From Bacteroidota bacterium (GTDB lineage Bacteria; Bacteroidota; Bacteroidia; Bacteroidales; UBA12077): DNA of 64,000 nt. The position numbers and the translations under genes are program-made. Below, in pieces: positions 1 to 36,842 of this stretch. Where the stretch lies: NCBI GenBank assembly GCA_020444275.1, contig JAHLLG010000001.1, positions 583,773-647,772 of the forward strand. Reading direction: 5' to 3'. A model generated the notes under the pieces. That model was not told the origin of the DNA and searched no databases. It worked only from the letters and a program-made list of their open reading frames with translations. Within the stretch, counting starts at the first letter, position 1, and each line of letters starts with the position of its first letter.

Positions 1-504
1 TTGTCTCAGGTTACATCGTTTGAGTTGCCTTTAACTTTAGGTGTTATTGCAATTGCTATGCAATATCAAACACTGAATATTACAGAAATTGTTGCTGCTC
101 AGCAGGGTGGATTTTTAAACTGGACAGTCATAACTAATCCTTTTGCAGCAGCTGCAATGCTAATAGCATTTCTTGGTGCTATGGGACGTTCTCCTTTTGA
201 TGTAGTTCTAGCACCACAAGAAATTCCAATTGGACCACCAACAGAATTTCATTCCGGTTTATTGGGTGTTTTGCAATTGAATCGTGCAATTTTTCCTGTT
301 GCTAAATTGATTCTTTTTATGAATCTATTATTTGGTGGAGCAACCAATTGGTTTGAGTTAATAGTAAAGACATTTTTTATTTATATGTGGTCTGTTTTTG
401 TTGGGGTTGTTTACCCACGATTCAGAGTAGACCAATCAGTGCGATGGTTTTTAACAGTACCATTAATTATTGGAATCATTGCAATTATTTTAATTCGATT
501 TTAA
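1..504 (+). CDS. NuoH/EchB/HyfC-like polytopic membrane subunit of an Ech/Ehr-type complex; C-terminal part, 5' end lies outside the window
   Basis: Open from base 1. Hydrophobic helices plus a loop ..SPFDVVLAPQEIPIGPPTEFHSG.. resembling the PFD..AE.E...G..TEYSG loop of NuoH/HycD-type subunits. Stop is 3 nt before the NuoB-like gene. Confidence 0.7.
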   Translation: MSQVTSFELPLTLGVIAIAMQYQTLNITEIVAAQQGGFLNWTVITNPFAAAAMLIAFLGAMGRSPFDVVLAPQEIPIGPPTEFHSGLLGVLQLNRAIFPVAKLILFMNLLFGGATNWFELIVKTFFIYMWSVFVGVVYPRFRVDQSVRWFLTVPLIIGIIAIILIRF

Positions 505-507
505 GAA

Positions 508-1146
508 ATGAAAGAAGATTTTAAAAAACGGACGGTAATATCACCTGATGGTAAACCGATTGAAATAGATCCTGTTAAAGATTATTTTAGTGATGCTAAG
601 CCTAAGGTATACAAACCTGCGCATCCTGTAATTGAGAAGTTTGCCAATTGGGCACGTGCTAACTCGTTGTGGGTGCTTGGATTTGGAACAGGTTGTGGTG
701 CAATTGAAATGCGTCCGCTGATGACACCCCGATTTGATGCTTACAGATATGGTATTCAGTGGAGACCAACACCAAGACAATCCTCGGTATTTGTTATTTC
801 AGGATACTTATCGGTTAAAACACTTAAACGAGTGGTTCGTACCTATGAGCAGATGCAGAATCCAAAGTTTGTAATTGCCTTGGGTAGCTGCACAATAAAT
901 GGGGGAATGTACTGGGATAGTTACAACACAATCAATCGATTGGATCATTATTTGCCTGTTGATGTGTATGTAGCAGGATGTATGCCTCGTCCGGAATCCT
1001 TATTAACAGGATTCGAAGAATTAAAGAAAATTATAAAAGAAGGTCGTGGAGAAGGTGCTAACAAGTATGCAGAAAATTTCGATTGGTACAAAGCAAACCA
1101 AAAGAAGATTATTAAAGATTGGGATATGCCGGATTATAACTGGTAG
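508..1146 (+). CDS. NuoB/EchC-like (20 kDa, hydrogenase small-subunit-like) Fe-S subunit
   Basis: Motifs FGTGCGAIEM, GSCTINGG and AGCMPRPE match the NuoB FGLACCAxEM / GxCxxxGG / GCPPRPE pattern. The second cysteine of the tandem CC is Gly here. Confidence 0.85.
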   Translation: MKEDFKKRTVISPDGKPIEIDPVKDYFSDAKPKVYKPAHPVIEKFANWARANSLWVLGFGTGCGAIEMRPLMTPRFDAYRYGIQWRPTPRQSSVFVISGYLSVKTLKRVVRTYEQMQNPKFVIALGSCTINGGMYWDSYNTINRLDHYLPVDVYVAGCMPRPESLLTGFEELKKIIKEGRGEGANKYAENFDWYKANQKKIIKDWDMPDYNW

Positions 1147-1186: not shown

Positions 1187-1714
1187 ATGAAAGACATAAT
1201 TGACCGAATAAAAACAAAATATACAATATCAGAAGTTGTTGAACAGAGGAAGAATCTAAGTTTTGTAACTGTTTCCAAAGAACAGGCTATCTCCATTATA
1301 ACATTTTTGAGAGATATTGAAGGATTTAAACATCTGGTTTTACTTACTGCAGCTGATTGGATTGAGAATGATAAATTTCAGTTAACTTATTTATTAAATA
1401 ATCCGACTGAAAAGATTGATTTAGGAGTAAGAGTTTTTATTTCCCGAGAGAATGCAAGCATGGAATCAGCTCATCATCTTTGGGAGCAGGTAGCTACTTA
1501 TCAACGTGAATTAAAAGAAATGTTTGGGATTGATTTTCCTGATAGTCCGGGTGTTGATAAACCCTTTATTTTAGAAGGTTGGGAAGATATACCACCTTAT
1601 CGACGTGATTTTGATACAAAACAATATTCTGAAGATACATATTTCCCAAGACCGGGAAGAGAATCAAATGATCCGGCAGAATATATGAAGAAAAAGCTTT
1701 ATCCGAATGAATAA
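1187..1714 (+). CDS. NuoC/EchD-like (30 kDa) subunit
   Basis: 175 aa. Lies between the B-like and D-like genes and overlaps the next gene by 8 nt. The region ..WEQVATYQRELKEMFGIDFPDSPG..PFILEGWE..PPYRRDF resembles the Complex1_30kDa core (ERE..dmfGi.f.gHP..r.il). Confidence 0.7.
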   Translation: MKDIIDRIKTKYTISEVVEQRKNLSFVTVSKEQAISIITFLRDIEGFKHLVLLTAADWIENDKFQLTYLLNNPTEKIDLGVRVFISRENASMESAHHLWEQVATYQRELKEMFGIDFPDSPGVDKPFILEGWEDIPPYRRDFDTKQYSEDTYFPRPGRESNDPAEYMKKKLYPNE

Positions 1715-2897
1715 GAAAAGATTTACCATAAACGAAGACAGATCATTATTCCCAGAAAAAAATGCTGAAGGGAAAATTGATATTGATTTAAGTTCGCATA
1801 AATATCTAAAATTGTGGCAAGGTCCGCAACATCCTGGTATAACCGGTAATATGTCGCTTGAGTTAACAGTACTTGGCGATGAAGTAATGGACTGTGAAAC
1901 ACATGTTGGATATTTACATCGTGGATTTGAAAAATTAATGGAACGACGTAAGTATATTCAATGTTTTCCAATTGTATGTCGGGTAGCTGTACCAGAACCG
2001 GATTTTAATGAGTATTGTTTTGCTTCGGCAATGGAAGAACTTGCAGGCATTGAAGTGCCTGAAATGGCTCAATGGTTAAGAACATTGGTATTGGAAATGT
2101 CTCGACTACAGTCTTATTTAATGTGGATTGGTGGTCAATCCGGTGCTTTTGGTTCCGGAATAATTGGACAATGGTCAATTTACTTACGTGATTTAGTTTT
2201 AGATCGTTTTGAAGAACTTACCGGTGGGCGCGTATATCATATGTATCAATTGCCCGGTGGAGTTCGTGGTTTGTTACCAGACGGATTTAAACAACGCATG
2301 GAAGAAACATTGCTAACCATAGAGAAATTTATGGATGATATCGATAAGGTAATGTTTAACAACGCTGTATTTAAAAAACGTTCGGTAGGAATGGGATATA
2401 TTGATCCTTCATGGGTAAATAAATTCGGAATTACTGGTCCTAATGCACGTGCTGCAGGAATACCTTTAGATGTTCGAAAAGATTATCCATATCTAAAATA
2501 TCCTGAACTGGACTTTGATGTAGTTGTTGGTAAAGATTCTGATATATATACACGTGCAGATATAAGACGAAAAGATCTATTATTAAGTGTTGACCTAATA
2601 CGCCAGATTTTTGCCAAAATGCCTGAGAAGGGTGATATTAAAGCAAAAACACCAAATGTGTTGCACTGGAAGGTGCCAAAAGGAGAAACATATAGCCGTG
2701 CCGAATGTACACGAGGTGAATATGGTTACTATATGGTTTCTGATGGCACTGAATATCCAAGAAGAATCAATGTTCGCGGACCTAGTTATACACATGCAGT
2801 TGCATTGTTAGAAAAAATGATCATTAACACAAATATAGCTGATGTAGCAGGATTAATGGTATCCTTGCATACTTATCCGCCGGAAATTGAACGATAA
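1707..2897 (+). CDS. NuoD / group-4 [NiFe]-hydrogenase large-subunit-like protein lacking NiFe ligands
   Basis: GPQHPG..G start motif, 396 aa. N-terminal R-x-C-G-x-C position reads CRVAVPEP. C-terminal DPCxxC position reads HTYPPEIER. C-terminus is NuoD-like (..GEVDR). Confidence 0.85.
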   Translation: MNKKRFTINEDRSLFPEKNAEGKIDIDLSSHKYLKLWQGPQHPGITGNMSLELTVLGDEVMDCETHVGYLHRGFEKLMERRKYIQCFPIVCRVAVPEPDFNEYCFASAMEELAGIEVPEMAQWLRTLVLEMSRLQSYLMWIGGQSGAFGSGIIGQWSIYLRDLVLDRFEELTGGRVYHMYQLPGGVRGLLPDGFKQRMEETLLTIEKFMDDIDKVMFNNAVFKKRSVGMGYIDPSWVNKFGITGPNARAAGIPLDVRKDYPYLKYPELDFDVVVGKDSDIYTRADIRRKDLLLSVDLIRQIFAKMPEKGDIKAKTPNVLHWKVPKGETYSRAECTRGEYGYYMVSDGTEYPRRINVRGPSYTHAVALLEKMIINTNIADVAGLMVSLHTYPPEIER

Positions 2898-2939: not shown

Positions 2940-4736
2940 ATGAAACTTAAAGATATATTATCTCCATTTACCGCCTGGAAACATGTAGTAAGAGAGCCTG
3001 TTACCATAAAAGATCCTTTTTCACGCGAAGGAGCCGACAGGTATAGGGGATTTCATAAAAATGATATTGAAACATGTATTGGCTGTGGTACTTGCGAAGA
3101 TATTTGCCAAAATGCAGCTATTGATATGGTTCCCGTAGAAGGTATAGAAACAAAAGACGGTGATAGTGGATTACGTCCACAGATTGATTATGGGAGATGC
3201 TGTTGGTGTGCTTTATGCGTAGATGTTTGTACAACCAATTCATTAAGTCTTTCTAATCATTTTACCTGGGTTGATGAAGATGCTGATGTATTCAGATTCA
3301 TACCTGGTGTAGATAAAAAAGATTGGGATAACGAAGAGCGTGGTTGGAAAAAACCGGAACCAAATTATGAGCTTTACGAAAAGGAAAGAGTTCCAATGCG
3401 AGAGCTTCATCCGGAAGAAAGAGATAAATCTTTTATTGAAATGGTTAAAGGTTATTCCAAAGAAGAAGCTGAGCGCGAAGCAGACCGTTGTGTTGAATGT
3501 GGTATTTGTATTGCTACTTGTCCTGCTCACATGGGTATTCCTGAGTATATCAAGGCCGTTCGTGAAGATAATATCGAAGAAGGATTTAAAAAATTATACG
3601 AAACCAATCCATTACCGGAAATTTGTGGACGTATTTGTACTCATAAATGCGAAACAGTCTGTTCTGTAGGTCATACAGGTGATCCGCTTTCTATTCGCTG
3701 GCTAAAAAGATATATTGCTGATCAGGTTGAATCAGAAGATTATAAGAATATCTTGGGAACAGATGGAATAGAAAATAATGGAAAAAAGATTGCTATTATC
3801 GGATCAGGACCATCCGGTTTATCTGCTGCTCATTATCTTGCATTAATGGGTTATCAGGTTAAAATATTCGAAGCATTTGATAAAGCAGGTGGTATGATGC
3901 GTTATGGAATTCCAGAATATCGTTTGCCTTATGATCAAATCGATAAAGATATTAACTACATATTATCTTTAGGTGTTGAAATTCAATATAATACTAAGGT
4001 AGGAAAAGATGTTTCTTTAGCTGATCTCGAAAAAGAATATGATGCCGTATTTGCAGGAACCGGATTACATTTAGGAAGAAGTACACGTATTCCAGGATCA
4101 GATCATGAAAATGTATACTTTGCTACTGATTTGCTGCGTGAAATTACACAAGGAAAAGAAATTCATGTAGCAGAGAAGATTGTCGTAATTGGAGGTGGTA
4201 ATGTGGCAATGGATATTACTCGTTCGTTAGCACGTTTACAAAACCAGAAATATGGTAAGGTTGATGTTACTGCTACTTCATTAGAATCTGAAGATATAAT
4301 GCCTGCCGATCGCGAAGAAATTGTAGAATCTCGTGAAGAAAAAGCAATCGTTGATCCGGGATGGGGACCTACTTCCATTGAAATTGAAAATAATAAGATT
4401 AAAGGATTACATGTTCAAAAATGTACTTCTGTTTTCGATGAAGAAGGTCGTTTTAATCCTAAGTTTGACGAATCGCAAACAAAATTCTTTGAAGCAGATA
4501 TGATTGTTGAATCAATCGGTCAGGGAATGGATATTGAATATATCAGTAAAGATATTCGTGAACAAATGGAGTTTGATCCACGCGGTAGAATAATTGTTGA
4601 TGATTATTTCCAATCGGGAGCTAAGTGGTTATTTGTTGGTGGAGATATTATTCAAGGACCAGATGTGATTCATGGTATTGCTAATGGACACAGGGCAGCA
4701 ATCGGAATTGATAAGTATTTAAACGAAAAAGCTTAA
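2940..4736 (+). CDS. Fusion protein: NuoI/EchF-type 2x[4Fe-4S] domain plus GltD/NfnB/PreT-like NAD(P)H-FAD oxidoreductase
   Basis: N-terminal CIGCGTCEDIC and CCWCALCVDVC (two CxxCxxCxxxC). Then CVECGICIATCP...CGRICTHKCETVC (GltD N-terminal Fe-S region). Then IAIIGSGPSGLSAA (FAD) and VVIGGGNVAMD (NAD(P)H) Rossmann motifs. Confidence 0.8.
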   Translation: MKLKDILSPFTAWKHVVREPVTIKDPFSREGADRYRGFHKNDIETCIGCGTCEDICQNAAIDMVPVEGIETKDGDSGLRPQIDYGRCCWCALCVDVCTTNSLSLSNHFTWVDEDADVFRFIPGVDKKDWDNEERGWKKPEPNYELYEKERVPMRELHPEERDKSFIEMVKGYSKEEAEREADRCVECGICIATCPAHMGIPEYIKAVREDNIEEGFKKLYETNPLPEICGRICTHKCETVCSVGHTGDPLSIRWLKRYIADQVESEDYKNILGTDGIENNGKKIAIIGSGPSGLSAAHYLALMGYQVKIFEAFDKAGGMMRYGIPEYRLPYDQIDKDINYILSLGVEIQYNTKVGKDVSLADLEKEYDAVFAGTGLHLGRSTRIPGSDHENVYFATDLLREITQGKEIHVAEKIVVIGGGNVAMDITRSLARLQNQKYGKVDVTATSLESEDIMPADREEIVESREEKAIVDPGWGPTSIEIENNKIKGLHVQKCTSVFDEEGRFNPKFDESQTKFFEADMIVESIGQGMDIEYISKDIREQMEFDPRGRIIVDDYFQSGAKWLFVGGDIIQGPDVIHGIANGHRAAIGIDKYLNEKA

Positions 4737-4747
4737 AATAAAATAGT

Positions 4748-5728
4748 ATGATTGACCTTTCGACAGAATACATGGGTTTAAAATTAAAGAACCCAATAAT
4801 TGCAGCTAGTTCAGGTATGACTGATTCAGTTGATAAAATCAAAAAGTTAGCTGATAATGGAGTTGCTGCTGTGGTTTTAAAATCTCTTTTCGAAGAACAA
4901 ATCCGAATGGAGATTGATTCTTTGGGTATGAATAATATGTTCAATTCCTATTCAGATACAGAAAGTTATATTGCCTTTTATACCAAGCAAAACGCCGTTA
5001 GTGAATATTTAAAATTGATTCAGGTTGCAAAAAAAGCTGTTGATATTCCTGTTATTGCTAGTATAAATTGCTATTCTATGGGAGAATGGGTTGAATTTGC
5101 TGAGAAAATTGAAAAAGCAGGCGCTGATGGTATAGAGTTAAATATGTTTATTTTACCTGGAGATACTGAAACCAAAGGTGAAGAAATAGAAAAAAAATAT
5201 TTCGATATTATCGAAAATGTAACAAAACATACTAGTTTGCCGGTTTCAGTTAAGTTGAGTCATTATTTTTCCGGAATGGGAGAGATATTTAAGAGAATTT
5301 CTGAAACACGGGTTAAGGGGATGATTTTATTTAATCGCTTTTATAGTCCGGATGTGGATTTGGATAATGAGGAGATTGTTTCATCAAGAGTTCTTAGTTT
5401 ACCTGAAGAAAATTCAATGTGTATTCGCTGGATAGGAATGTTATCTAATAAAGTATCATCAGATTTATGTGCATCTACCGGAATTATGGATGGTAAGGAT
5501 GCATTAAAAAACATTCTTGTTGGAGCCAAAGCAGTGCAAGTAGCATCTACACTTTATAAAAACAAACCTGAGCAAATAGGTGTAATGTTGAAGCAAATAG
5601 AAGATTGGTTAAAACAGAAAGGATATAAATCCATAGATGAAATAAGGGGAAAACTGAATACGTCAAAACTGAATATGGAACGATACGAAAGAGCTCAATT
5701 CATGAAATATTATTCGAACTACGAATAA
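4748..5728 (+). CDS. Dihydroorotate dehydrogenase-like (DHOD/PreA-like TIM-barrel flavoprotein) protein, copy 1
   Basis: N-terminal L.L.NPII.ASSG, ..ADGIELN.., ..GI..G.DA.k.il.GA.AVQvaS typical of the class-1 DHOD/DPD FMN domain. Starts 11 nt after the GltD-like gene. Confidence 0.75.
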   Translation: MIDLSTEYMGLKLKNPIIAASSGMTDSVDKIKKLADNGVAAVVLKSLFEEQIRMEIDSLGMNNMFNSYSDTESYIAFYTKQNAVSEYLKLIQVAKKAVDIPVIASINCYSMGEWVEFAEKIEKAGADGIELNMFILPGDTETKGEEIEKKYFDIIENVTKHTSLPVSVKLSHYFSGMGEIFKRISETRVKGMILFNRFYSPDVDLDNEEIVSSRVLSLPEENSMCIRWIGMLSNKVSSDLCASTGIMDGKDALKNILVGAKAVQVASTLYKNKPEQIGVMLKQIEDWLKQKGYKSIDEIRGKLNTSKLNMERYERAQFMKYYSNYE

Positions 5729-5733
5729 GAACT

Positions 5734-5761
5734 AAACCGGCTTGGACAGTCGGTTTTTTTA
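5734..5761 (+). terminator. Rho-independent terminator ending the Ech-like operon
   Basis: Hairpin AAACCGGCU / AGUCGGUUU (loop UGGAC) followed by a U run. Confidence 0.6.
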
Positions 5762-5845: not shown

Positions 5846-6328
5846 ATGAAAGTAAGTGAAATATTAGACAAAAAGAAGGAGCAGGGTATAAACAAAATTT
5901 ATACTGTTTCTGAAGTAAGTACTGCATTCGATGCAATTTCTAAATTGGATAACTTAAAAGTGGGATCATTACTTGTTGTAGATTCGAAAGATGAAATAAT
6001 TGGAATTGTATCTGAACGTGATATTTTATATAAATGTTACAATTCCGGAATTCCATTAAAAGAACGTAACATTAAGGATTTGATGACACCAAAAGATAAC
6101 CTGATTATCGGAAAACTAGATGATAAAACCGATTATTTGAGAAGTGTGATGACCGATAGACGAATTCGTCACATACCAATTATTGATGATTCAAACCAGG
6201 TTGTTGGAATAATCTCTTCCGGAGATATTCTTAAAAATGAACTGGAAGTTACCGAAGCAGAAGCACATTTGTTAAGAGAACATATTAAAAATCCTTTTGG
6301 TGTTCATACCTATAAATCTGAAGATTAG
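5846..6328 (+). CDS. CBS domain pair protein
   Basis: 160 aa with two CBS-like units (..VGSLLVVDSKDEIIGIVSERDIL.. and ..IRHIPIIDDSNQVVGIISSGDIL..). Confidence 0.8.
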   Translation: MKVSEILDKKKEQGINKIYTVSEVSTAFDAISKLDNLKVGSLLVVDSKDEIIGIVSERDILYKCYNSGIPLKERNIKDLMTPKDNLIIGKLDDKTDYLRSVMTDRRIRHIPIIDDSNQVVGIISSGDILKNELEVTEAEAHLLREHIKNPFGVHTYKSED

Positions 6329-6353: not shown

Positions 6354-6381
6354 AAAGCCCGGAACTAATTCGGGCTTTTTG
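6354..6381 (+). terminator. Rho-independent terminator
   Basis: AAAGCCCG / CGGGCUUU stem, 9-nt loop, U run. Confidence 0.65.
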
Positions 6382-6461: not shown

Positions 6462-7439
6462 ATGATAGATCTCTCAACAAATTATATGGGGTTTAAATTA
6501 GAAAACCCAATTATTGCAGCCAGCTCAGGAATGACAGATAGTGTTGATAAAATAAAAAACCTGGAAGTGAATGGAGTAGGTGCCGTAGTACTGAAATCAT
6601 TATTCGAAGAGCAAATCATGATGGAGATAGACAAAACTACGGCTCAAAACTTATATAATACATATGGTGATGCAGAGGAATACATCGAGTATTATACTCG
6701 TAAGCATAACATAGATAATTATTTACATCTGATTGAAAAGTCAAAAGCTGAAGTGGATATTCCTGTTATTGCAAGTTTAAATAGTTTCTCTGTTGGGCGT
6801 TGGGTTGATTTTGCTGAAAAAATAGAATCTGCAGGAGCGGATGGAATTGAATTGAATCTTTTTTTACTACCAGGTGATCAAAAGTTTAGCGGGCAGGAAA
6901 TAGAGAATATTTACCTGGATATTATCCGAAGCGTGAGGAAAAATACAACCTTGCCCATTGCAGTTAAGTTGAGTTCATATTTTACCGGTTTGGCCGATTC
7001 GCTCATCAAAATGTCTAAAGAGCAAGTATCAGCCATGGTATTGTTTAATCGTTTTTATAGCCCCGATGTTGATTTGGAGAATGAGCAAATTGTTTCGTCA
7101 AGAATTTTTAGCTTACCCGAAGAAAATTCAAACTGTATTCGTTGGATTGGAATACTTTCTGATAAAGTGGATTGCGATTTAGCGGCATCAACAGGAATAG
7201 TCGATGGCTACGATGCACTTAAGAATTTATTGGTTGGCGCAAAAGCGGTTCAGGTTGCATCTACACTTTATAAAAATACTGCCAAACAAATTGGTATCAT
7301 GAAACATCAAATGGAAGTTTGGATGAACGAGAAAGGATATAAATCTCTGGATGAGATTATAGGAAAACTCAGCTATAAAAAGATTGAAAAGCCAATGATT
7401 TATGAGCGTGCACAGTTTATGAAATACTTTCAGAAGTAA
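6462..7439 (+). CDS. Dihydroorotate dehydrogenase-like protein, copy 2 (paralogue of 4748-5728)
   Basis: Collinear with copy 1 over its full length (MIDLST.YMG.KL.NPIIAASSGMTDSVDKIK...). Same substituted active-site stretch. Confidence 0.75.
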   Translation: MIDLSTNYMGFKLENPIIAASSGMTDSVDKIKNLEVNGVGAVVLKSLFEEQIMMEIDKTTAQNLYNTYGDAEEYIEYYTRKHNIDNYLHLIEKSKAEVDIPVIASLNSFSVGRWVDFAEKIESAGADGIELNLFLLPGDQKFSGQEIENIYLDIIRSVRKNTTLPIAVKLSSYFTGLADSLIKMSKEQVSAMVLFNRFYSPDVDLENEQIVSSRIFSLPEENSNCIRWIGILSDKVDCDLAASTGIVDGYDALKNLLVGAKAVQVASTLYKNTAKQIGIMKHQMEVWMNEKGYKSLDEIIGKLSYKKIEKPMIYERAQFMKYFQK

Positions 7440-7463
7440 TAATTCATATGTTAATAGTTAACA

Positions 7464-7493
7464 AAAGTCAGCATGTTATTTGCTGACTTTTTA
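7464..7493 (+). terminator. Rho-independent terminator
   Basis: AAAGUCAGCA / UGCUGACUUU 10-bp stem, 7-nt loop, U run. Confidence 0.65.
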
Positions 7494-7507: not shown

Positions 7508-8764
7508 ATGATGAAAACAATCTTATTTATAATAGTTGTTATTTTTAGTTTTATTTCTGCTCAGAGTCAGGAAGTTTTTCAAGACAAAATCTTTAATAAA
7601 AACATTAAAACAGTTTTAATGTATCTCGGTGATGATGATATGTCTTTCCCGATTTGGGATTTGGGTAGTAGCAAGCAATTAACGCTCAGTTTTGATGAGT
7701 TAAATGCAAGCGTAAAGGATTATTACTATACTATAATTCACTGCAACTCGGATTGGACAAGATCAAACCTGGATCAAAGTGAGTATATCGAAGGATATTT
7801 TGAAGATCAGATTTCTGAGTATCAATCATCGTTTAATACCACTGTAGATTATACACATTATGAGCTAAAGATTCCGAATGATTATATGCGCCCGATGATA
7901 TCCGGGAATTACGTAATTGAAGTTTTTGATAGTTCAAATCCTGATAAGGCCATATTCAGAAAACGTTTTATGGTGGTTGAGCGAAAAACCAATATCGAAA
8001 TGAAAGTAAGCAACATGAATCAGGGAGCGTATTTTTATAATGATCAGGAACTGGAAATTGTCGTAGATTATTTCCAGAATGATTTTTATGATATCAGTCA
8101 AAATCTTGAAGTTCAGGTTTTAAAAAATTACAACTGGGTACAGCTACTTGTTCTAAAACAACCAAATATAATCAAGGATAATGAGTTTACCTTTAATGAT
8201 TTTTCAAAATTAAAATTTAAAGGTGGTAACGAGTTTCATCACTTTAATACAAAGGATATCCATTATAATGCCGAAAATATTAAGAACATTAGCTTTATGG
8301 ATAATCAGTATCATTTTCAATTAGTTGAGAATAAAGATCGAACATTTGATGATTATCAGTTTGTACCCGATATTAACGGGTTATATAAAATTGATGTATC
8401 ACAAAGTGATTATCCTGAAACAGAAGCCGATTATACATATGTTTATTTTACCTTAAATATGAATGTACCTTTACAGCAGGGTGAAATGTATGTTTGGGGA
8501 GCTTTAACCAATTATGAGTTTACCAACGATAATATGTTGCGATATAATTTCGAACAAAAAGCATACGAGGGACGTTTGCTTTTAAAGCAAGGATACTATA
8601 ATTTTCAGTATGTAACTTTGGAAAAAGGAAAGCCTGATTTTACATACATTGAAGGCAATCATGCACTGACAGAAAATAGCTATACTACATTGGTATATTA
8701 TCACGATTTTAGTGGTGGATATGATCGGTTAATCGGGCATACCGAAATTTCTACAAGAGAATAA
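7508..8764 (+). CDS. Secreted DUF5103 / type IX secretion plug-like domain protein
   Basis: Signal peptide, then ..IKTVLMY..FPIWDLGSSKQLTLSFDEL...YYYTIIHCNSDWT.S.L...EYI.G......Y..S.NT..DYTHY.L.IPN....SGNYVIEVF. I recall this as the DUF5103 N-terminal signature. Confidence 0.5.
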   Translation: MMKTILFIIVVIFSFISAQSQEVFQDKIFNKNIKTVLMYLGDDDMSFPIWDLGSSKQLTLSFDELNASVKDYYYTIIHCNSDWTRSNLDQSEYIEGYFEDQISEYQSSFNTTVDYTHYELKIPNDYMRPMISGNYVIEVFDSSNPDKAIFRKRFMVVERKTNIEMKVSNMNQGAYFYNDQELEIVVDYFQNDFYDISQNLEVQVLKNYNWVQLLVLKQPNIIKDNEFTFNDFSKLKFKGGNEFHHFNTKDIHYNAENIKNISFMDNQYHFQLVENKDRTFDDYQFVPDINGLYKIDVSQSDYPETEADYTYVYFTLNMNVPLQQGEMYVWGALTNYEFTNDNMLRYNFEQKAYEGRLLLKQGYYNFQYVTLEKGKPDFTYIEGNHALTENSYTTLVYYHDFSGGYDRLIGHTEISTRE

Positions 8765-20340: not shown

Positions 20341-21998
20341 ATGTTTGTTCCTAAGTTGTTTACTGTATTTCAGGAAGGATATTCCCGATCTCAGTTTATT
20401 AAAGATCTAATTGCCGGTTTAATTGTTGGTGTAGTAGCTTTGCCTTTAGCAATAGCTTTTGCAATTGCATCTGGTGTTTCTCCTGAAAAAGGACTGGTAA
20501 CAGCTATTATTGCAGGATTTATTATTTCCGCATTTGGTGGTAGCCGGGTTCAGATTGGTGGTCCCACAGGAGCATTTATTATAATTGTTTTTGGTATAGT
20601 TGAAAAGTATGGAATTTCAGGATTAACAATTTCTACATTTATAGCTGGTTTTATCATCATAATTTTAGGATTGACCAAACTTGGATCAGTTATTAAGTTT
20701 ATTCCACAATCTGTGGTAGTAGGGTTTACAAGTGGTATTGCATTAATCATTTTTTCTACTCAAATAAAAGATTTCCTGGGACTTGAATTAGATTCTGTTC
20801 CATCTGACTTTTTAAGTAAGTGGTTATGTTACTTTAAAAATATTCATTCTCTTAATTGGTATGCGGTCTCAATAACCTTACTTACAATTATAATTTCTGT
20901 TTATTTACCAAGAGTTACAAAAAAAATTCCCGGTTCACTAGTAGCTATTATTCTGTCTACTTTAATAGTGAATTTTTCAATTTACCTGTTGAAACAATTT
21001 ATAGTAAATTTGGGGAAATACCGTCAACTTTTCCAAAACCAGAATTACCAACTATAAATTTAACAGTTATGAAGGAATTAATTGAACCGGCTTTTGCTAT
21101 AGCTTTGTTAGGTTCAATTGAATCTTTATTATCAGCTGTTGTATCTGATGGAATGATTGGTGGAAAACATCGTTCGAACATGGAATTGGTTGCTCAAGGA
21201 GCAGCGAATATTTTTTCATCTATATTTGGAGGTATCCCGGCAACAGGTGCAATTGCACGTACAGCAACAAATATTAAAAATGGAGGAAGAACTCCCATTG
21301 CAGGTATAGTCCACGCCATTACTCTGTTAATTATCATGTTGTTTGTTGGGAAATGGGCAAAACTTATTCCAATGGCTAGTTTAGCTGGAATACTAATTGT
21401 TGTTGCATATAATATGAGTGAATATAAAGCATTTATTTCATTAACAAGAGGCCCTAAAAGTGATGCAGCTATTCTTTTAATAACTTTTGGATTAACTGTC
21501 CTTGTTGATTTAACAGTAGCTTTGGAAATTGGTATGGTACTGGCAGCCTTTTTATTTATGAAAAAAATGGCCTCAATTAGCCATATATATGAAATTACTC
21601 ATGAAATAAATGATGTTAAAGATATTGAAGATCCTGAAGCTACAGGAAACTATGTAATACCTGAAGGAGTAGAAGTTTATGAAGTTAACGGACCATTGTT
21701 TTTTGGTGCAGCCTATAAGTTTAGAGATGCATTAAAGCTTTCCGACAAAAAACCAAAAATATTAATTATTCGTATGAGGCATGTTCCAACGATTGATGCC
21801 ACAGGATTACATCATTTAAAAGAAATTGTAAAAGATTTTAAACACAAAAATATTAAGGTTATTATTTCAGGTATTCAACCTGAAGTGTATAGAGAACTTG
21901 AAAAAAGTCGTATTGCTTTTCTCATAGGAAAGAAAAATATAAAAAACCACATAAAACTTGCTATAGATCGTGCTGTAGAAATTGGTAACCCGAAGTAA
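20341..21998 (+). pseudogene. SulP family anion permease with C-terminal STAS domain, interrupted by a frameshift
   Basis: ORF 20341-21057 (..GGSRVQIGGPTGAF..) and ORF 20856-21998 (..SIESLLSAVV.D......N.EL.AQG.ANI.., STAS-like end) are the N- and C-terminal parts of one SulP protein. They lie in different frames and switch at the T5 run 20973-20977. Confidence 0.8.
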
Positions 21999-31073: not shown

Positions 31074-32366
31074 TTAACGCTGAGCTGATATGTTTAGCTC
31101 TAATTTAACAATATCTTCCTGACCGTATCCGTTTTTGTCATATTTGGAAATGTATGCTTTTGTTCCATTCTCAACCGGATAATAAAACAGATTATCATCG
31201 GTGGTATTTACGGGATAACCCATATTGGTTGGTTTACTCCACACATTCTGCTCAATATTTTCGCTGTAAAAAATATCAAACCCTCCCATGTTATAATGTC
31301 CTTCTGAGCTAAAATACAATGTTTTATTATCCTGACACATTACAGGTGTTTCTTCATTAAACGGAGTATTGATTTCACTACCTAGATTAATTGCTACACC
31401 CCAGTCCTGTGCTTTTTCATCATATTGACTTTTATAGATATCTGTTCCACCGAATCCTCCTTTTCTGTTGCTAACAAAAAATAGTGTTTTACCATCGCAT
31501 GATAAAGAGGCGAAAGTTTCCTGAAAACGGGAATTAATGTTCTTATTCAGTTTTACAGGAGCCGACCATTTATTATTCTTAAGATAGCTCACATAGATAT
31601 CACTTGAAAAATTTTCCTCTTTATATAATAGTAAGGTTTTTCCATCTGAAGATAAAAAACATGGATAAATGTCTCCATTAGAATTAAGATCTGGTGTTAT
31701 GTTAACCGGAGTTGTCCAGGTATCATCTTTCTTCACAGTATAGAATATGGCATCGTAAAATTTGAGCTTACTCATGTAAACCATGCTTTTTTCGTTGGCA
31801 GAAATAAGCGGCCTAATATTTGGAAACTGGTCGTTAATATATTCTCCAATATTGATTTCATGTACTTCTTTAGGTTTGCTTATCAGATCTTTAGCGGCAT
31901 TACACGATTGAATTTGTTTGTAAACGTAGTCAAGATTATAGTTGTTATTGCTTGCAACTAGCTCTTCAAATTTTTTAAATGTTTCGATAGCCTTTTCCAG
32001 TTCATTATTTTGCTGGTAGGCACACGCAAGATAGAAGAGTGTTCGGTACGGTGCTTTAGTTTCTTTTATTGAACCTTCCTTAATGTCATCAGATAAATTA
32101 TTACAAGCTTCTTCAAGAAAAGGAATTGATTTTTCTTTCTGACCTGATATTTGAAGATAACACTCTCCAATCCGGTGTTTTATGTATGCGTTATCTAAAC
32201 CCTTATTATGAAGATCTATATAGAGAGCCAAAGCTTCCGGATAATCTTCGTATAAGATAAAATACTCAGCTTCTTCAAATGTTTCTTTTAAGACATCTTT
32301 ATTTTGCGAAAAGCTGATTAAATATACGAATATACTTAATACAGTAAATAATAGTTTTTTCCCCAT
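31074..32366 (-). CDS. TPR plus PD40 (TolB-like beta-propeller repeat) periplasmic/outer-membrane-associated protein, paralogue 1
   Basis: Signal peptide from the internal Met (MGKKLLFTVLSIFVYLISFSQ; ORF extends to 32414). N-terminal TPR region, then repeated ..S.DGKTL.F.SNR.GG.GG.DIY.. PD40-type units. Confidence 0.7.
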   Translation of the reverse strand: MGKKLLFTVLSIFVYLISFSQNKDVLKETFEEAEYFILYEDYPEALALYIDLHNKGLDNAYIKHRIGECYLQISGQKEKSIPFLEEACNNLSDDIKEGSIKETKAPYRTLFYLACAYQQNNELEKAIETFKKFEELVASNNNYNLDYVYKQIQSCNAAKDLISKPKEVHEINIGEYINDQFPNIRPLISANEKSMVYMSKLKFYDAIFYTVKKDDTWTTPVNITPDLNSNGDIYPCFLSSDGKTLLLYKEENFSSDIYVSYLKNNKWSAPVKLNKNINSRFQETFASLSCDGKTLFFVSNRKGGFGGTDIYKSQYDEKAQDWGVAINLGSEINTPFNEETPVMCQDNKTLYFSSEGHYNMGGFDIFYSENIEQNVWSKPTNMGYPVNTTDDNLFYYPVENGTKAYISKYDKNGYGQEDIVKLELNISAQR

Positions 32367-32444
32367 AAGACGACCAAAGTAGATTGATGATTTACGAGTA
32401 CAATTTACTGACAATTAATAAAAAAAACCAAAATAAAAAGTTAA

Positions 32445-35378
32445 TTATGACCTGTTTTTCCTGTTTTCTTTATTGCGTCTGCGATTAAAGTAAATAATAA
32501 TCCATGCCAATAAAACTCCGGAGATTGCTCCAAAAATAATCAGCCATAAATTAGTGCCTTTTTGCTTATCCTTAACTGCAACTGGCAGTTGCTCAGTATC
32601 TTTCTCAACGGATGCTTTGTTAGCTATAAGTATTCCTTCCATTATGGCAAAGATTTGCGATAATTCCTGATCGGAGTACTTACCTGACTGGATTAAATAC
32701 TTTTTAAAATCGTCGATAGATACCATGTTAATTGCAGAAGCATCAATGTTTGTTAGTATGCTTGCAATGTCTGTATTTATTAACGATTCAAGCTTTGCCA
32801 ATAGTTCTTGTGTAGATATTTCAGATTGTTTCAGATAATCTTCGAGTAAACGAATAATATCCTTATGATTATAGTTATAAGCATTGGATTGTACTTCCAA
32901 TTCCTGAATTACTTCAAGGTTTGTTTGGTAACTGCTCTGATTATTTTGAATTGAATCAAGTACAACTTTTAAATCACCTTGCGCAATATTGAGTAAGGAT
33001 GCAATAAACTGCTCTGTATTATTTGTAGAATTTATTACCAGAGCAATGATGAGTGCTTGTGCTTGTTCTTTAGATAATCCTAATGAGGCAGCTTTTTGGT
33101 AAATATGGTTTATTAATTCGTCTGCTGATTTTAATGCTATTACGTCGTTCGATTTAAGTAATTCCTGATATCCTTTGTTGTTGAAACTAACAATTCCCGT
33201 AAGCACTTGAGCGAAATTTTCGTTAACCGGTGTGTGTGATACTAGTACCTCCTGATTGGAAACATTATTGTGTTTATCTACTAATTTGAAGTTAATTTTA
33301 GATTGTTGACCTTTTGGTTCAAATTCATATATAAAACTTTCTTTACCAACATTGAACTGTTCGGTATTAACTAATTTATTATCGACATATGTTTCAACAA
33401 ATAACTTGGATCCTTTTTCTACCGATAGTTTTATTTTTACTGTTTTATTTCCATTAGCTCCTAAGCTAATAATTTTTTCAGCAATGCTTAATTCGGCTTT
33501 AGTATCTCGAGGTAGATATGAAACTGTAACCTCCTCGCTTTTTGCATTATTATTTTTGTCTACAAGTGTAAATTGAAGCTTACTTTCTCCTACCAGAGGT
33601 TTATACTCATAAATAAAATTATCCTTTTTAATATCAAACTCCTCGGTATTAATTAACTGGTCTTTATAAAAAGTATGAACTATAAGTTTATTTCCTTTTT
33701 GAAGTGAAAGTTTAATTTTAATATTTTCCTGGTCGGTTTTAACCAAATTTGTATCTAAAGATATTTCGGGCAGGGTATCTGCCAGTGCGATTTCTTTTGT
33801 TTCTTTAATCTTCGATTGAAAAACTTCTTTAACTTCATAGTCTGTAGAAATAAAGTACTGTGTTTGATTATCATCATCAAAAGTACTTTCATAAACCAAA
33901 TGATTTTTACCTAATGGTGTTCTGTACTGGTAATTTTCATTATCTGTATCAGGGTTTAATACTGCAATGGTGTCGTTTGTTGTTTGATCAATGATATTTA
34001 TGCTGAAATCTTTTTTATTGCGATCAACTTCATTATCCATGGTTAACTTACCTTCAACCAGGATATTTTCATAATCAGGTATATGAAATAACTGATAGTG
34101 ATAAATGTCCTGTCCTCCATATCCTTGCTGAGAAAACTGAGAACAGTATGCAAAACTGCCATCTTCAAATGGTACAAAGAAAATGTCATTGTCGGTGGTA
34201 TTTATTGGATATCCAATATTTACTGGTTCTGTCCAAGTCTGATTTTCTTTACGTTCTGAATAAAAAATATCATAACCACCCATTCCTTGATGACCTTCCG
34301 AACTAAAAAATAATCGTTTCCCATCCGGAGTTAGAAATGGAGTGTTTTCATTCCACTGTGAGTTAATTACTTCACCAAGGTTTTTTGCTACTCCCCAGGT
34401 GGTATCTGTTAAGCGTTCAGAAACATAAATGTCGAGATCTCCATATCCACCTTCCCGGTTACTAACAAAGTAAAGTTTGTTATTATCAGGCGATAAAGAT
34501 GCATGAGATTCCCAGTATTTTGTGTTAATATTTTCGCCAAGTTTACGAACTTTTGTCCAGATACCATTTTTTAGGTAACTTACATAAATATTGCCATCAA
34601 AATCATCGTCGCGATAAATGTATAATTCGGTACCATCATAAGAAAGCCCCGTTGTTGCACTATTATCATCAACGCCTAATTGTCCCATTAAATTTATTGG
34701 ATAACTCCACTCACCAGTGCTATCTTTTTTTGAATAAAAAATCCCATCATAAAATTGCAACGAGGCTGTAAAAACCATTGTTGATCCATCACCAGAGACT
34801 ACTGCATTAAATTCATTAAACCTTGAATTTACTTTATTTCCAACATTTTTGGCAATAAAACTAATCGGTTCGTACTGAAACTGAATTGCATTTCTACAGG
34901 CATCAAATTGGCGCTGAAGATATTCTAAATCGTATATGTCTCTATTCGCAGCTTTTTGTGTGCGCGAAATGGCATTTTGAAAACCTGAATAAGCATCAAT
35001 TGCTTCGTTAATTCGGTTATTTACTAGATATGCATTGCCCAGATAAAAAAGTGCATCTACCGGAGCATCTTTTTCGGTATAAGTATTTTTTCGGTAATTG
35101 AACGTAGTTTTATTTATCGCATTTTCAAGATAAGGAATCGATTTATGTTTCTGTCCTGGAATATGTAGGTAACAGAACCCAATTTTATACATTACATTAT
35201 AATTTAAAGAGTCGGCTTCTAATACCCTTAGAAATAGGGGTAATGCTTCTTCATAATCTTCATAAAAAAACCATGAATCTGCATCCAGAAACATTTCTTC
35301 AAGCTCGTAGTATTCCTGCGTATAGGTATTCGCTACAAAAACAATGCTTAGTATAGAGAGTATAAACAGCCTTTTCAT
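32445..35378 (-). CDS. TPR plus PD40 protein with long C-terminal extension (tandem beta-sandwich-like repeats, helical region, C-terminal TM anchor), paralogue 2
   Basis: Same N-terminal architecture as its neighbours; likely start MKRLFILSI.. (ORF extends to 35399). Then about 500 extra aa ending in LWLIIFGAISGVLLAWIIIYF-NRRRNKENRKNRS. Confidence 0.7.
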   Translation of the reverse strand: MKRLFILSILSIVFVANTYTQEYYELEEMFLDADSWFFYEDYEEALPLFLRVLEADSLNYNVMYKIGFCYLHIPGQKHKSIPYLENAINKTTFNYRKNTYTEKDAPVDALFYLGNAYLVNNRINEAIDAYSGFQNAISRTQKAANRDIYDLEYLQRQFDACRNAIQFQYEPISFIAKNVGNKVNSRFNEFNAVVSGDGSTMVFTASLQFYDGIFYSKKDSTGEWSYPINLMGQLGVDDNSATTGLSYDGTELYIYRDDDFDGNIYVSYLKNGIWTKVRKLGENINTKYWESHASLSPDNNKLYFVSNREGGYGDLDIYVSERLTDTTWGVAKNLGEVINSQWNENTPFLTPDGKRLFFSSEGHQGMGGYDIFYSERKENQTWTEPVNIGYPINTTDNDIFFVPFEDGSFAYCSQFSQQGYGGQDIYHYQLFHIPDYENILVEGKLTMDNEVDRNKKDFSINIIDQTTNDTIAVLNPDTDNENYQYRTPLGKNHLVYESTFDDDNQTQYFISTDYEVKEVFQSKIKETKEIALADTLPEISLDTNLVKTDQENIKIKLSLQKGNKLIVHTFYKDQLINTEEFDIKKDNFIYEYKPLVGESKLQFTLVDKNNNAKSEEVTVSYLPRDTKAELSIAEKIISLGANGNKTVKIKLSVEKGSKLFVETYVDNKLVNTEQFNVGKESFIYEFEPKGQQSKINFKLVDKHNNVSNQEVLVSHTPVNENFAQVLTGIVSFNNKGYQELLKSNDVIALKSADELINHIYQKAASLGLSKEQAQALIIALVINSTNNTEQFIASLLNIAQGDLKVVLDSIQNNQSSYQTNLEVIQELEVQSNAYNYNHKDIIRLLEDYLKQSEISTQELLAKLESLINTDIASILTNIDASAINMVSIDDFKKYLIQSGKYSDQELSQIFAIMEGILIANKASVEKDTEQLPVAVKDKQKGTNLWLIIFGAISGVLLAWIIIYFNRRRNKENRKNRS
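33229..33746 (-). repeat. In-frame tandem duplication (2 x about 85 aa) inside paralogue 2
   Basis: ..IKIKLSLQKGNKLIVHTFYKDQLINTEEFDIKKDNFIYEYKPLVGESKLQFTLVDKNNNAKSEEVTVSY aligns with ..VKIKLSVEKGSKLFVETYVDNKLVNTEQFNVGKESFIYEFEPKGQQSKINFKLVDKHNNVSNQEVLVSH. Confidence 0.6.
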
Positions 35379-35504
35379 AAAATCCTTATTTTCAAACACA
35401 CGAAATTAGATAAAAATAATGAAAAATTTGCGTATAGCTATGGAATAATAACTAAAATTATTTGATTCTAACTAAATATGTGACAAAGGGATAAAAATAT
35501 TAGA

Positions 35505-36842
35505 TTAATCTTCGGAGATGTAGTTTTCGTTATTATTTAACTCTTTTTCTTTCTCAGGAATATTTTCTCTTTCAAATATTTGAATTCTATAGATGTCATT
35601 GTCCCCATAACCTGTTTCCTTAAATTTGGAGTAATAGGCTATTTCTCCGTTTTTTAATGGGAAGAAGAACAAATCATCGTCTGTAGTATTAAATGGTAGT
35701 CCAAGGTTTTCAGGCTTACCCCAGTCTGTACCTTGTATTTTAGCTGTAAAGATATCGAAACCACCAATATTAAAATGGCCTTGGGAAGAAAAATATAAAG
35801 TTTCTTCGTCTTCTGTAATAAAAGGAGTAGCTTCATCAAAAACAGTATTTATGGTTGCTCCTAAATTTTCAGGCGGACCCCAATTTCCTTCATTATCGAT
35901 TCTTGACCTGTAAATATCGAAACCACCAAAACCTCCTTCTCTATTGCTTGTAAAGTAAAGCGTTAATCCATCATCAGAAACGCATGCGTGTGTTTCTGAT
36001 GCACTTGTATTAATATTGCTGTTTAATTTTACAGGAGGTCCCCATATTCCATCATTAAACCGGCTAGTGTATAAGTTAAGATCATCGTTATCGTTTCGAA
36101 CTAAGTATAATGTATTACCATCTCTTGTTAAATATACCGGAGTTAAAGGATTTTCGGAGTCAAAATCCAAGGAAATATTTCTTGCAGGTAACCAAAAACC
36201 ATCTCGCTTTTTAGATGCGAAAATTCCATCATAAAATCTTAACTGACTTACAAAAACAATAGTTTCTTCATCTTCAGAAACTAAAGGATTAATATTATTA
36301 AAAGAGCTGTTAATATTTTTTCCCAGATTTTTTTCTATAATACTCGTAGGAATTTTTGATAGTTCTAATGCATTGTTACAGGCTGTTATTTCTGCATCTA
36401 CAATTTTTTGTTGCTCCTGATCATTTGGATCAAGGAGTTCTTTATATTTTTTAAAAGCTACAATGGCTTCTTTTAATTTATTATTAACTCTGTATGCTCT
36501 GCCCAAATAAAGATAAGCCTCTATAGGCGCTTCGCGTTCGTTATAATTACCAACACTATAATTCGTATTTATGTTTTCAACAGCTTCTTCAAGATATTTA
36601 ATGGCTTTGTCTTTTTCATTGGGGATGTTTAAATAACATAAACCTATTCTGTGTTTAATGTTGGCATCTCTTCTTCCTGCATCATATAATTCTAAAAAAT
36701 AGGGTAATGCTTCGCGATATTCTTCATAGATTAAAGAAAATTCACCATTAATAAAGGCTCTTTTTAGATCCTTTTTGGTTTGGGCATTGATATTTCCAAA
36801 CAGAAATGAAATAAAAATTGATAGAATCAAGATTTTTTTCAT
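35505..36842 (-). CDS. TPR plus PD40 protein, paralogue 3
   Basis: Signal peptide MKKILILSIFISFLFGNINAQ, TPR region, PD40-like units (..S.DGLTLYFTSNREGGFGGFDIY..). Confidence 0.7.
   Translation of the reverse strand: MKKILILSIFISFLFGNINAQTKKDLKRAFINGEFSLIYEEYREALPYFLELYDAGRRDANIKHRIGLCYLNIPNEKDKAIKYLEEAVENINTNYSVGNYNEREAPIEAYLYLGRAYRVNNKLKEAIVAFKKYKELLDPNDQEQQKIVDAEITACNNALELSKIPTSIIEKNLGKNINSSFNNINPLVSEDEETIVFVSQLRFYDGIFASKKRDGFWLPARNISLDFDSENPLTPVYLTRDGNTLYLVRNDNDDLNLYTSRFNDGIWGPPVKLNSNINTSASETHACVSDDGLTLYFTSNREGGFGGFDIYRSRIDNEGNWGPPENLGATINTVFDEATPFITEDEETLYFSSQGHFNIGGFDIFTAKIQGTDWGKPENLGLPFNTTDDDLFFFPLKNGEIAYYSKFKETGYGDNDIYRIQIFERENIPEKEKELNNNENYISED

Follow-up and report, generated by a model that had tools for sequence, protein, structure and literature searches.

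MBS of Pyrococcus furiosus, formerly called Mbx, is the described system closest to the one reported here. Its large subunit, MbsL, has no equivalents of His38 and Tyr87 of the complex I subunit Nqo4 or of E21 of the hydrogenase subunit MbhL, and it keeps just two (C85 and C385) of the four cysteines that hold a NiFe centre (PMC7684303). The proximal 4Fe-4S cluster of MBS has three cysteine ligands, MbsJ C28, C93 and C123, and its one free iron is the proposed catalytic site; the MbsL C85A/C385A and MbsJ C25A enzymes are still active (PMC7684303). We have analyzed a related locus in a stretch of 64,000 nucleotides (nt) from a Bacteroidota bacterium of the order Bacteroidales (assembly GCA_020444275.1, contig JAHLLG010000001.1, positions 583,773 to 647,772 of the forward strand), hereafter the window, and in particular its gene for a large subunit with the NuoD fold. 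A sequence-only reading had described the catalytic pocket of this subunit as lacking both the ligands of the NiFe hydrogenases and the quinone-site residues of complex I.

The 'mbx-like' operons of Thermotoga and Proteobacteria carry a gltD-related flavoprotein in place of NuoI and often have rubrerythrin as their last gene (PMC4758237). Leftover cysteines in the NuoD homologues of these operons were noted by Degli Esposti in 2015, who assumed a ferredoxin:NAD(P)+ function (PMC4758237), an assignment that predates the biochemistry of MBS. More distant bacterial MBS homologues are those of T. maritima (PMC9431562) and of strain 3DAC (PMC10356935), both induced by S0. The umbrella term Ehr denotes group 4 hydrogenase-like subunits without NiFe ligands that are combined with Mrp antiporter-like subunits, and Mbx is counted among them (PMC6349859). 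In the literature we found no biochemical study of the operon type that combines mbx-like genes with gltD, and nothing specific for Bacteroidota, Marinimicrobia or Sedimenticola.

Family identity and pocket of the large subunit

As regards both family and architecture, we are highly confident in assigning the gene product, as the L subunit, to a bacterial complex of the MBS/Mbx type that is linked to NAD(P)H. In a sequence search against all solved structures, the best match of its product was P. furiosus MbsL (6u8y_L; E = 1.7e-93, 316.7 bits), with weaker matches to Nqo4 (5.4e-60), mitochondrial 49-kDa subunits (about 1e-56) and MbhL (5.6e-34). The same held for the complex at large, as every subunit compared with the PDB (L, J, the N-terminal domain of the fusion subunit, M and the antiporter) matched its own MBS chain best. 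MbsL shows GPQHMA-TENF, RICVPEPD and SLDNCPPDIDR as the counterparts of the signature motifs, and VPEPD and PP[DE]I[DE]R are common to both proteins. An AlphaFold2 monomer of the large subunit (predicted local distance difference test score, pLDDT, 80.9; predicted template modelling score, pTM, 0.84) had 6u8y_L as a near-top structural match in Foldseek (TM 0.82/0.87, 42% identity). The Foldseek scores for complex I 49-kDa subunits were similar (TM about 0.8), and the E-value did not separate MBS from complex I. Since the fold resembles MbsL and complex I alike, it does not discriminate between them; the sequence scores do. The protein also matches Pfam PF00346 with 202.5 bits and passes the NuoD model NCBIfam NF004739 with 387.5 bits (cut-off 360), which explains the name 'NuoD' in public records and has no bearing on the substrate.

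The residues of the pocket were compared with those of T. thermophilus Nqo4 (2fug_4) in a HMMER alignment, from which the Nqo4 residue numbers were counted. Without gaps, T46 aligns with His38 and V95 with Tyr87; A147 takes the place of D139, G154 that of F146, H388 that of D401 and A94 that of D86, and R84 is kept as R92. The four positions of the NiFe-ligand cysteines (RxCGxC and DPCxxC), assigned against the hydrogenase motifs seen in hydrogenase-like representatives of a 50%-identity library, are occupied by A94, E97, Y390 and E393. With respect to MbsL, C85 corresponds to A94, C385 to Y390 and D383 to H388, and E97 and E393 stand at the other two ligand positions. By these alignments the large subunit cannot bind a NiFe centre, and the quinone-headgroup His and Tyr of complex I are missing from their canonical positions.

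Much of what the sequence-only reading had pointed out agrees with these assignments. The motif CRVAVPEP (amino acids (aa) 91-98) lies exactly where it was placed, at nt 1977-2000, and the alignment bears out the changes proposed there, from ligand cysteines to A94 and E97 and from the Tyr position to V95, as well as the change of the C-terminal ligand cysteines to Tyr and Glu (Y390 and E393). The second His of GPQHPxxHG is indeed Thr, T46 being the residue aligned with Nqo4 His38. This His was rightly called a complex I feature but wrongly a conserved hydrogenase residue: hydrogenase-like representatives have a Glu one residue later, where the large subunit has G47. The C-terminal motif HTYPPEIER is present, although at 2868-2894 and not at 2871-2897, a range that was shifted by 3 nt and included the stop codon; it is closer to SLDNCPPDIDR of MbsL than to the GEVDR ending of NuoD to which it had been likened. 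The overall statement that the pocket matches neither known chemistry is correct in that the site is neither a NiFe site nor a complex I quinone site, but it overlooked the third branch with a solved structure, MBS (Mbx). The odd pocket is thus real, but this branch, already known within the family of hydrogenases and complex I, largely explains it.

Conservation was evaluated in the 120 database homologues closest to the window protein (71-92% identity) and in a locus set of 83 sequences, consisting of the window and 82 species-level loci. T46 was found in 119/120 of the closest homologues and in 83/83 sequences of the locus set, and C334 in 120/120 and 83/83, respectively. V95-P-E-P-D, H388, Y390 and E393 were invariant among the closest homologues (120/120), while in the locus set H388 was present in 82/83 sequences and Y390 and E393 in 83/83. 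The motifs to which the earlier reading had drawn attention are therefore invariant or nearly so among orthologues and not a product of chance. Position 94 was Ala in 59, Cys in 51, Thr in 8 and Ser in 2 of the 120 closest homologues; by locus, it was Cys in 35/35 Proteobacteria and Ala, Thr or Ser in 17/17 Bacteroidota. No cysteine occupied a ligand position in the window protein or in the Bacteroidota members (17/17). The L gene is under strong purifying selection: compared with its nearest relative, locus L005 from an uncultured Bacteroidales metagenome-assembled genome (MAG; 98% aa identity), the ratio of nonsynonymous to synonymous substitution rates (dN/dS) was 0.014 at a dS of about 1.4, and over the comparisons made it ranged from 0.014 to 0.04.

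A scan of species-representative genomes revealed a relative in 315 species-level genomes, and the best 80 of these 315 belonged to Bacteroidales, Marinimicrobia, Cloacimonadota, Spirochaetes, Gamma- and Betaproteobacteria, Magnetococcales and others. The pocket motifs were invariant across Bacteroidota, Marinimicrobia, Spirochaetes, Cloacimonadota and Proteobacteria. The subclade of the window protein, which extends from Bacteroidales to Proteobacteria at about 70% identity or above, is reduced to one full-length representative by clustering at 50%, and in that library the next full-length relatives are at about 44%. This pattern is consistent with recent horizontal spread of the subclade combined with strong constraint, and its distribution over at least five phyla presumably came about by horizontal transfer.

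A sister subclade (the P0121 group; MAGs of Bacteroidota and Chlorobi) is about 67% identical to the window protein. All of its members (120/120) have kept C94 and C390 and have S334 together with Q or A at position 388. Its operon is alike, with the GltD fusion and a single-Cys J subunit, and a DHOD-like gene was found in 1/2 loci inspected. In the 240 homologues of the two subclades, 122 positions are at least 98% identical, and just four separate the subclades strictly, namely 142 (G/P), 334 (C/S), 356 (V/L) and 390 (Y/C). Position 390 is a former ligand; 142 belongs to the segment in which complex I has T135 and D139; and C334 is located two residues ahead of the Arg of the conserved RGE motif, at a position that is Ala in MbsL. 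Replacement of Cys by Tyr at 390 thus goes together with a newly gained Cys at 334 and, though less strictly, with His at 388. Given that the sister subclade keeps both leftover cysteines, the pocket has been remodelled and not lost. In the window subclade a further Cys always stood just before R92, at aa 90 ('CV') or 91 ('VC'; window 1974-1979), and it was sometimes missing in the sister subclade. This Cys possibly contacts the proximal cluster.

Operon partners and the electron-input module

The window itself covers the operon from M (partial) through N, and the upstream part was read from relatives (Table 1), including loci L001 and L005, which are 92% and 98% identical in the L subunit. 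In relatives the complete operon encodes MnhE, MrpF, MnhG, MbhD, MnhB, a NuoK-like subunit, H-H', M, J, K, L and N, and the MBS gene order A-B-C-D-E-G-H-H'-M-J-K-L-N was met in L001, L005, L003, L087 and L088. By comparison with the PDB, the 1045-aa antiporter protein of L001 is MbsH fused to MbsH'. The full-length M orthologue of the same locus matched 6u8y_M best (E = 5.8e-43), ahead of MbhM (9e-15) and Nqo8 (7e-9). In the window, the start of the L gene overlaps the upstream MbsK/NuoC-like gene by 8 nt, a pattern typical of translational coupling.

Table 1. Coordinates of the operon genes and of the pocket motifs in the window
Feature	Position	Strand	Evidence or remark
Membrane-anchor subunit (MbsM/NuoH-like), 3' part, truncated by the window start	1..504	+	PF00146, profile positions 134-297
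Small subunit (MbsJ/NuoB-like), proximal 4Fe-4S cluster	508..1146	+	Best PDB match 6u8y_J, E = 2.4e-63
MbsK/NuoC-like subunit	1187..1714	+	Pfam PF00329
Large subunit (MbsL/MbxL-like, NuoD fold)	1707..2897	+	Intact open reading frame, 396 aa
beta1-beta2 loop motif GPQHPGITGNM, aa 39-49, T46 at the Nqo4 His38 position	1821..1853	+	Alignment to Nqo4 and MbsL
Remnant of first NiFe-ligand motif, V-C-R-V-A-V-P-E-P-D	1974..2003	+	Alignment to Nqo4/MbsL
Chamber region G142-G143...A147...G154; complex I counterpart holds T135, D139, F146	2130..2168	+	Ungapped HMMER alignment to Nqo4
C334-T-R336 at the conserved RGE motif	2706..2714	+	Cys subclade-specific
Remnant of second NiFe-ligand motif, H-T-Y-P-P-E-I-E-R, aa 388-396	2868..2894	+	Alignment to Nqo4/MbsL
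Fusion subunit, MbsN/NuoI-like + NfnB/GltD-like	2940..4736	+	Fer4_7, Fer4_20, Pyr_redox_2; NF010590 end to end, 904 bits
DHOD-like FMN protein, last operon gene in Bacteroidota	4748..5728	+	Pfam PF01180; NCBIfam NF005741 'DHOD-like protein'
Terminator-like hairpin with T-run	5734..5756	+	Consensus scan only

The small subunit has exactly three cysteines, C63, C128 and C158, and these align with MbsJ C28, C93 and C123. G60 stands at the position of MbsJ C25, and G64 where the 'CC' pair of complex I has its second Cys, so that C-C of NdhK corresponds to C63-G64. The resulting single-Cys motif G-T-G-C-G, in which the first Cys of the hydrogenase CxxC is Gly, was present in 72/72 J orthologues. 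Read against the mutant enzymes of P. furiosus, the window genes are in effect the natural equivalent of MbsL C85A/C385A and MbsJ C25A, and they retain the three-Cys ligation by which MBS chemistry is defined. Two known enzyme types were considered for the complex and ruled out: a group 4 [NiFe] hydrogenase, as L has no ligand Cys and J no CxxC pair, and a classical quinone-reducing NuoD, as L has T46, V95 and A147 and the partner subunit has no tandem Cys.

The electron-input module is a single fusion protein, whose gene lies directly 3' of the L gene in nearly all loci of sufficient length. In the PDB search, aa 5-142 matched 6u8y_N, and aa 148-597 matched NfnA (9n5u), NfnB (4ylf_B) and NfnI (5jca_L). 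The protein contains 16 cysteines in four 4Fe-4S motifs, two of them (CxxCxxCxxxC) in the NuoI/MbsN-like domain and two in the NfnB/GltD-like domain; the latter domain also has the FAD fold motif GSGPSG and the NAD(P)H fold motif GGGNVA.

The gene that ends the operon varies among phyla. A homologue of the DHOD-like protein follows the fusion gene in 15/17 Bacteroidota loci; in the window protein, the place of the catalytic S-C-P-N motif of L. lactis DHODA is an alignment gap. A rubrerythrin-like gene stands in the place of the DHOD-like gene in Proteobacteria only, and neither of the two was found at the operon end in the loci of Marinimicrobia, Spirochaetes and Cloacimonadota. The rubrerythrin-like protein (167 aa, two EExxH motifs) ends the operon in L003 (12972-13478) and in about 30 proteobacterial loci and, judged by its size, apparently has no rubredoxin domain. 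It might, as a matter of speculation, protect an oxygen-labile three-Cys cluster in microaerophiles. In the window, the hairpin listed last in Table 1 probably marks the operon end.

Directly upstream of the operon, a regulator of the Crp/Fnr family (cNMP_binding and HTH_Crp_2) was found in L001 (1419-2075), L085 (498-1193) and L088 (1439-2134), all three being Bacteroidota loci and together representing both subclades; the window starts downstream of that place. This regulator hints at redox or oxygen control of the operon, and apart from it the flanking genes of the inspected loci gave no substrate clue.

Downstream of the operon, the window encodes a CBS-pair protein (5846-6328, + strand) and a second DHOD-like paralogue (6462-7439, + strand; NF005741, 402 bits), each followed by a terminator-like hairpin (6354-6378 and 7463-7491, respectively). 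The arrangement of CBS-pair gene and second DHOD-like gene recurs in L005, and a CBS gene also follows in L020 and L008. A further downstream gene (7508-8764, + strand) encodes a type 9 secretion plug domain (PF17116), and a gene with this domain in L086 (12441-13784) lies directly after the operon; the presence of the domain in the window and in a Chlorobi-labelled MAG of the sister subclade suggests conserved local synteny.

Further along the window, a sulfate permease of the SulP family is split over two overlapping open reading frames in different frames (20341-21057 and 20856-21998, + strand). The first covers Pfam profile positions 1-218 and the second 217-380 plus the STAS domain, and the split is due to a frameshift, a sequencing error or pseudogene formation. 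Three consecutive genes for PD40/WD40-like beta-propeller repeat proteins (446, 984 and 445 aa) occupy 31074-36842 on the - strand. A search with Rfam detected no RNA family in the 64,000-nt window.

Candidate substrates and roles of the complex

The complex very probably consists of an Mrp-like arm with fused MbsH-MbsH', the subunits M, J, K and L, and the MbsN-like/NfnB-GltD-like fusion subunit. L, presumably with neither a metal centre nor a quinone site of the complex I type, would shape together with J and M the hydrophobic chamber that lies under the proximal 4Fe-4S cluster, and would pass redox events to the pumps via its conserved beta1-beta2 loop. Electrons are likely to travel, in either direction, between NAD(P)H, FAD, the four 4Fe-4S clusters of the fusion subunit and the three-Cys proximal cluster of J. 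By analogy with the proposal for P. furiosus MBS, the free iron of this cluster may be the reactive site, and the partner substrate would most likely be sulfane sulfur (polysulfide). Because the potential gap between NAD(P)H and polysulfide is small, the reaction would be readily reversible, operating near equilibrium or backwards; the complex may serve sulfidic anaerobes as an electron sink, or sulfur oxidisers as a means of reducing NAD(P)+ at the expense of an ion gradient. Sulfane sulfur is favoured by the induction of more distant bacterial MBS homologues by S0 and by the hosts, many of which oxidise sulfur or come from sulfidic habitats (Sedimenticola, Thiolinea, Thiohalocapsa, Sulfuritalea and Magnetococcus). 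Taken in full, including the sulfane sulfur substrate, we hold this proposal tentatively, at slightly less than an even chance.

Several observations weigh against it. Between NAD(P)H, at about -320 mV, and polysulfide, at about -260 mV, only about 12 kJ per 2 e- are available, and a membrane arm of MBS size, as found here, was linked by Yu et al. to about 41 kJ (PMC8165549). No sulfur-metabolism genes adjoined the operon in the loci inspected. Confidence in the AlphaFold2 monomer is low for the pocket segments 41-47, 69-94 and 394-396, and the residues lining the cavity were therefore assigned by alignment only. Above all, the invariant Y390 and C334 and the nearly invariant H388 of the subclade have no counterpart in MbsL, which points to a modified pocket chemistry; this subclade-specific pocket is the main reason against equating the enzyme with MBS.

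The main rival reading, which on balance we regard as unlikely, makes the complex an NAD(P)H:quinone oxidoreductase, i.e. an alternative, NADPH-linked complex I in which Y390 and H388 would replace Tyr87 and His38 in headgroup binding and protonation. Electron transfer from NAD(P)H to menaquinone would yield about 47 kJ per 2 e-, a far better fit to an MBS-sized arm (inferred from PMC8165549). The chamber entrance of MBS equals that of complex I in width (PMC7684303), and D401 of Nqo4, the position of H388, is counted among the quinone-chamber residues (PMC4758237). In about 200 orthologues Y390 is invariant and H388 nearly so, at positions that lie at the chamber end in MBS and complex I, and it is the switch from C390 to Tyr that sets the window subclade apart from its Cys-retaining sister. 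The same subclade is, however, present in MAGs of Spirochaetes and Cloacimonadota, which often have no quinones. Moreover, every named residue of the quinone site (His38, Tyr87, D139, F146 and D401) is missing, and J is without the tandem-Cys N2 motif that accompanies quinone or phenazine reactivity (PMC4758237). A quinone role stays the main rival to the polysulfide proposal because of the energetics and because an invariant Tyr/His pair is placed at the tip of the chamber.

Somewhat less likely again is a new catalytic class acting on another substrate, such as an organic persulfide, a disulfide or a small oxidant, for which the relocated thiols of C334 and C90/91 would, along with Y390 and H388, serve as proton donors. 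Such a change of substrate would be in keeping with the position of three of the four subclade-separating residues (142, 334, 356 and 390) in or beside chamber-forming regions, with the gain of C334 exactly where C390 was lost, and with the variation of the last accessory gene, DHOD-like or rubrerythrin-like, by phylum. Yet operon and fusion subunit are shared by the sister subclade, so that a similar function is the simpler assumption.

A related and broader idea, which we consider possible but doubtful, is that the 'HTY' subclade (after H388-T-Y390) represents a fourth catalytic type in the complex I/hydrogenase superfamily, ion-translocating and NAD(P)H-linked. Its chamber substrate could be something other than H+, classically bound quinone or polysulfide, for example a quinone bound through the relocated Tyr/His or a sulfur or thiol compound reacting in a protonation-dependent manner. 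In the sulfur- and iron-oxidising Proteobacteria among its carriers, the HTY complex might serve to make NAD(P)H through reverse electron flow.

The original Mbx model, a ferredoxin:NAD(P)+ oxidoreductase in which electrons would pass from ferredoxin through the NuoI-like clusters to the GltD-like flavin while the L/J chamber served coupling only, seems improbable to us. It was proposed for mbx-like operons with gltD by Degli Esposti in 2015 (PMC4758237), and the NfnB-like domain corresponds to the NADP(H)-binding, ferredoxin-linked subunit of Nfn enzymes, but the model was superseded once MBS proved to reduce sulfane sulfur (PMC7684303, PMC8165549). An electron path from ferredoxin to FAD would skip the proximal cluster, whereas coupling in all characterised machines of the complex I type needs chamber chemistry beside this cluster, and with an idle site it would be hard to see why chamber residues and three-Cys cluster are so strongly conserved. 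Finally, that the gene is a non-functional or decaying relic of a hydrogenase or NuoD gene, for which the sequence-only reading had left room and which the loss of all four NiFe ligands and of the quinone-site residues might suggest, is hardly conceivable and stands refuted by the dN/dS of 0.014 at a dS of about 1.4 and the motifs that are invariant among orthologues, together with the 122 near-invariant positions, the intact frame that overlaps the upstream gene and the retention of the operon in 315 species-level genomes.

Comparison with known systems

The name 'NADH-quinone oxidoreductase subunit D', widespread for this protein, is probably wrong as to function, and with a relative in at least 315 species-level genomes, metabolic reconstructions for these genomes probably score it as a complex I in error. 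As a natural counterpart of the mutants, maintained under strong selection, the window operon independently supports the view that MBS-type catalysis depends on the three-Cys cluster and can do without those cysteines. The clade appears to couple an Mrp-type pump to NAD(P)H via an NfnB-like flavoprotein, and its cultured carriers, Prolixibacter, Magnetococcus marinus MC-1, Thiohalocapsa marina and Magnetovibrio blakemorei, make the substrate question directly testable.

With the group 4 [NiFe] hydrogenases (MbhL, EchE and HycE), the large subunit shares ancestry, fold and the recognisable motifs R-x-A-V-P-E and H-T-Y-P-P-E-x-x-R. It differs from them in having none of their four ligand Cys or their conserved Glu, and its match to MbhL is far weaker. 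Complex I subunits (NuoD, Nqo4 and 49 kDa) have in common with it the fold, PF00346, NF004739 and R92, the equivalent of Nqo4 R84, but their His38, Tyr87, D139, F146 and D401 are all replaced here; unlike complex I, the system described here has no tandem-Cys N2 motif and no NuoEFG module, and its membrane arm is of the Mrp/MBS type. The operon of the window and its relatives falls under Ehr in the broad sense of that term.

P. furiosus MBS is alike in Thr at the His38 position and Val at the Tyr87 position, in VPEPD and PPxIxR, in the three-Cys cluster of J, and in operon order, Mrp-like subunits and two antiporter-like pumps. It differs in the cysteines MbsL C85/C385 and MbsJ C25, which are A94/Y390 and Gly here, in the H388 and the new invariant C334 of the window protein, and in its separate MbsH and MbsH', which are fused in the system described here, where a DHOD-like subunit is also added. 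The MbsN of MBS is a stand-alone subunit of the ferredoxin type, whereas here the MbsN-like domain and an NfnB/GltD-like NAD(P)H flavoprotein form one fused subunit, which suggests that the electron partner would be NAD(P)H instead of, or besides, ferredoxin. The hosts of MBS are hyperthermophilic archaea, and those of the present complex mesophilic bacteria.

Compared with the mbx-like operons with gltD described in 2015, which have leftover cysteines and a terminal rubrerythrin, the window operon has no ligand Cys and a DHOD-like end. T. maritima MbxL was not among the 120 closest homologues listed, while MbxL of Magnetococcus marinus MC-1 is 73% identical to the window protein and shares with it the HTY motif, a three-Cys J and the NuoI-GltD fusion. 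Together, these comparisons identify the window operon as a new member of a bacterial variant that was described earlier without biochemical characterisation.

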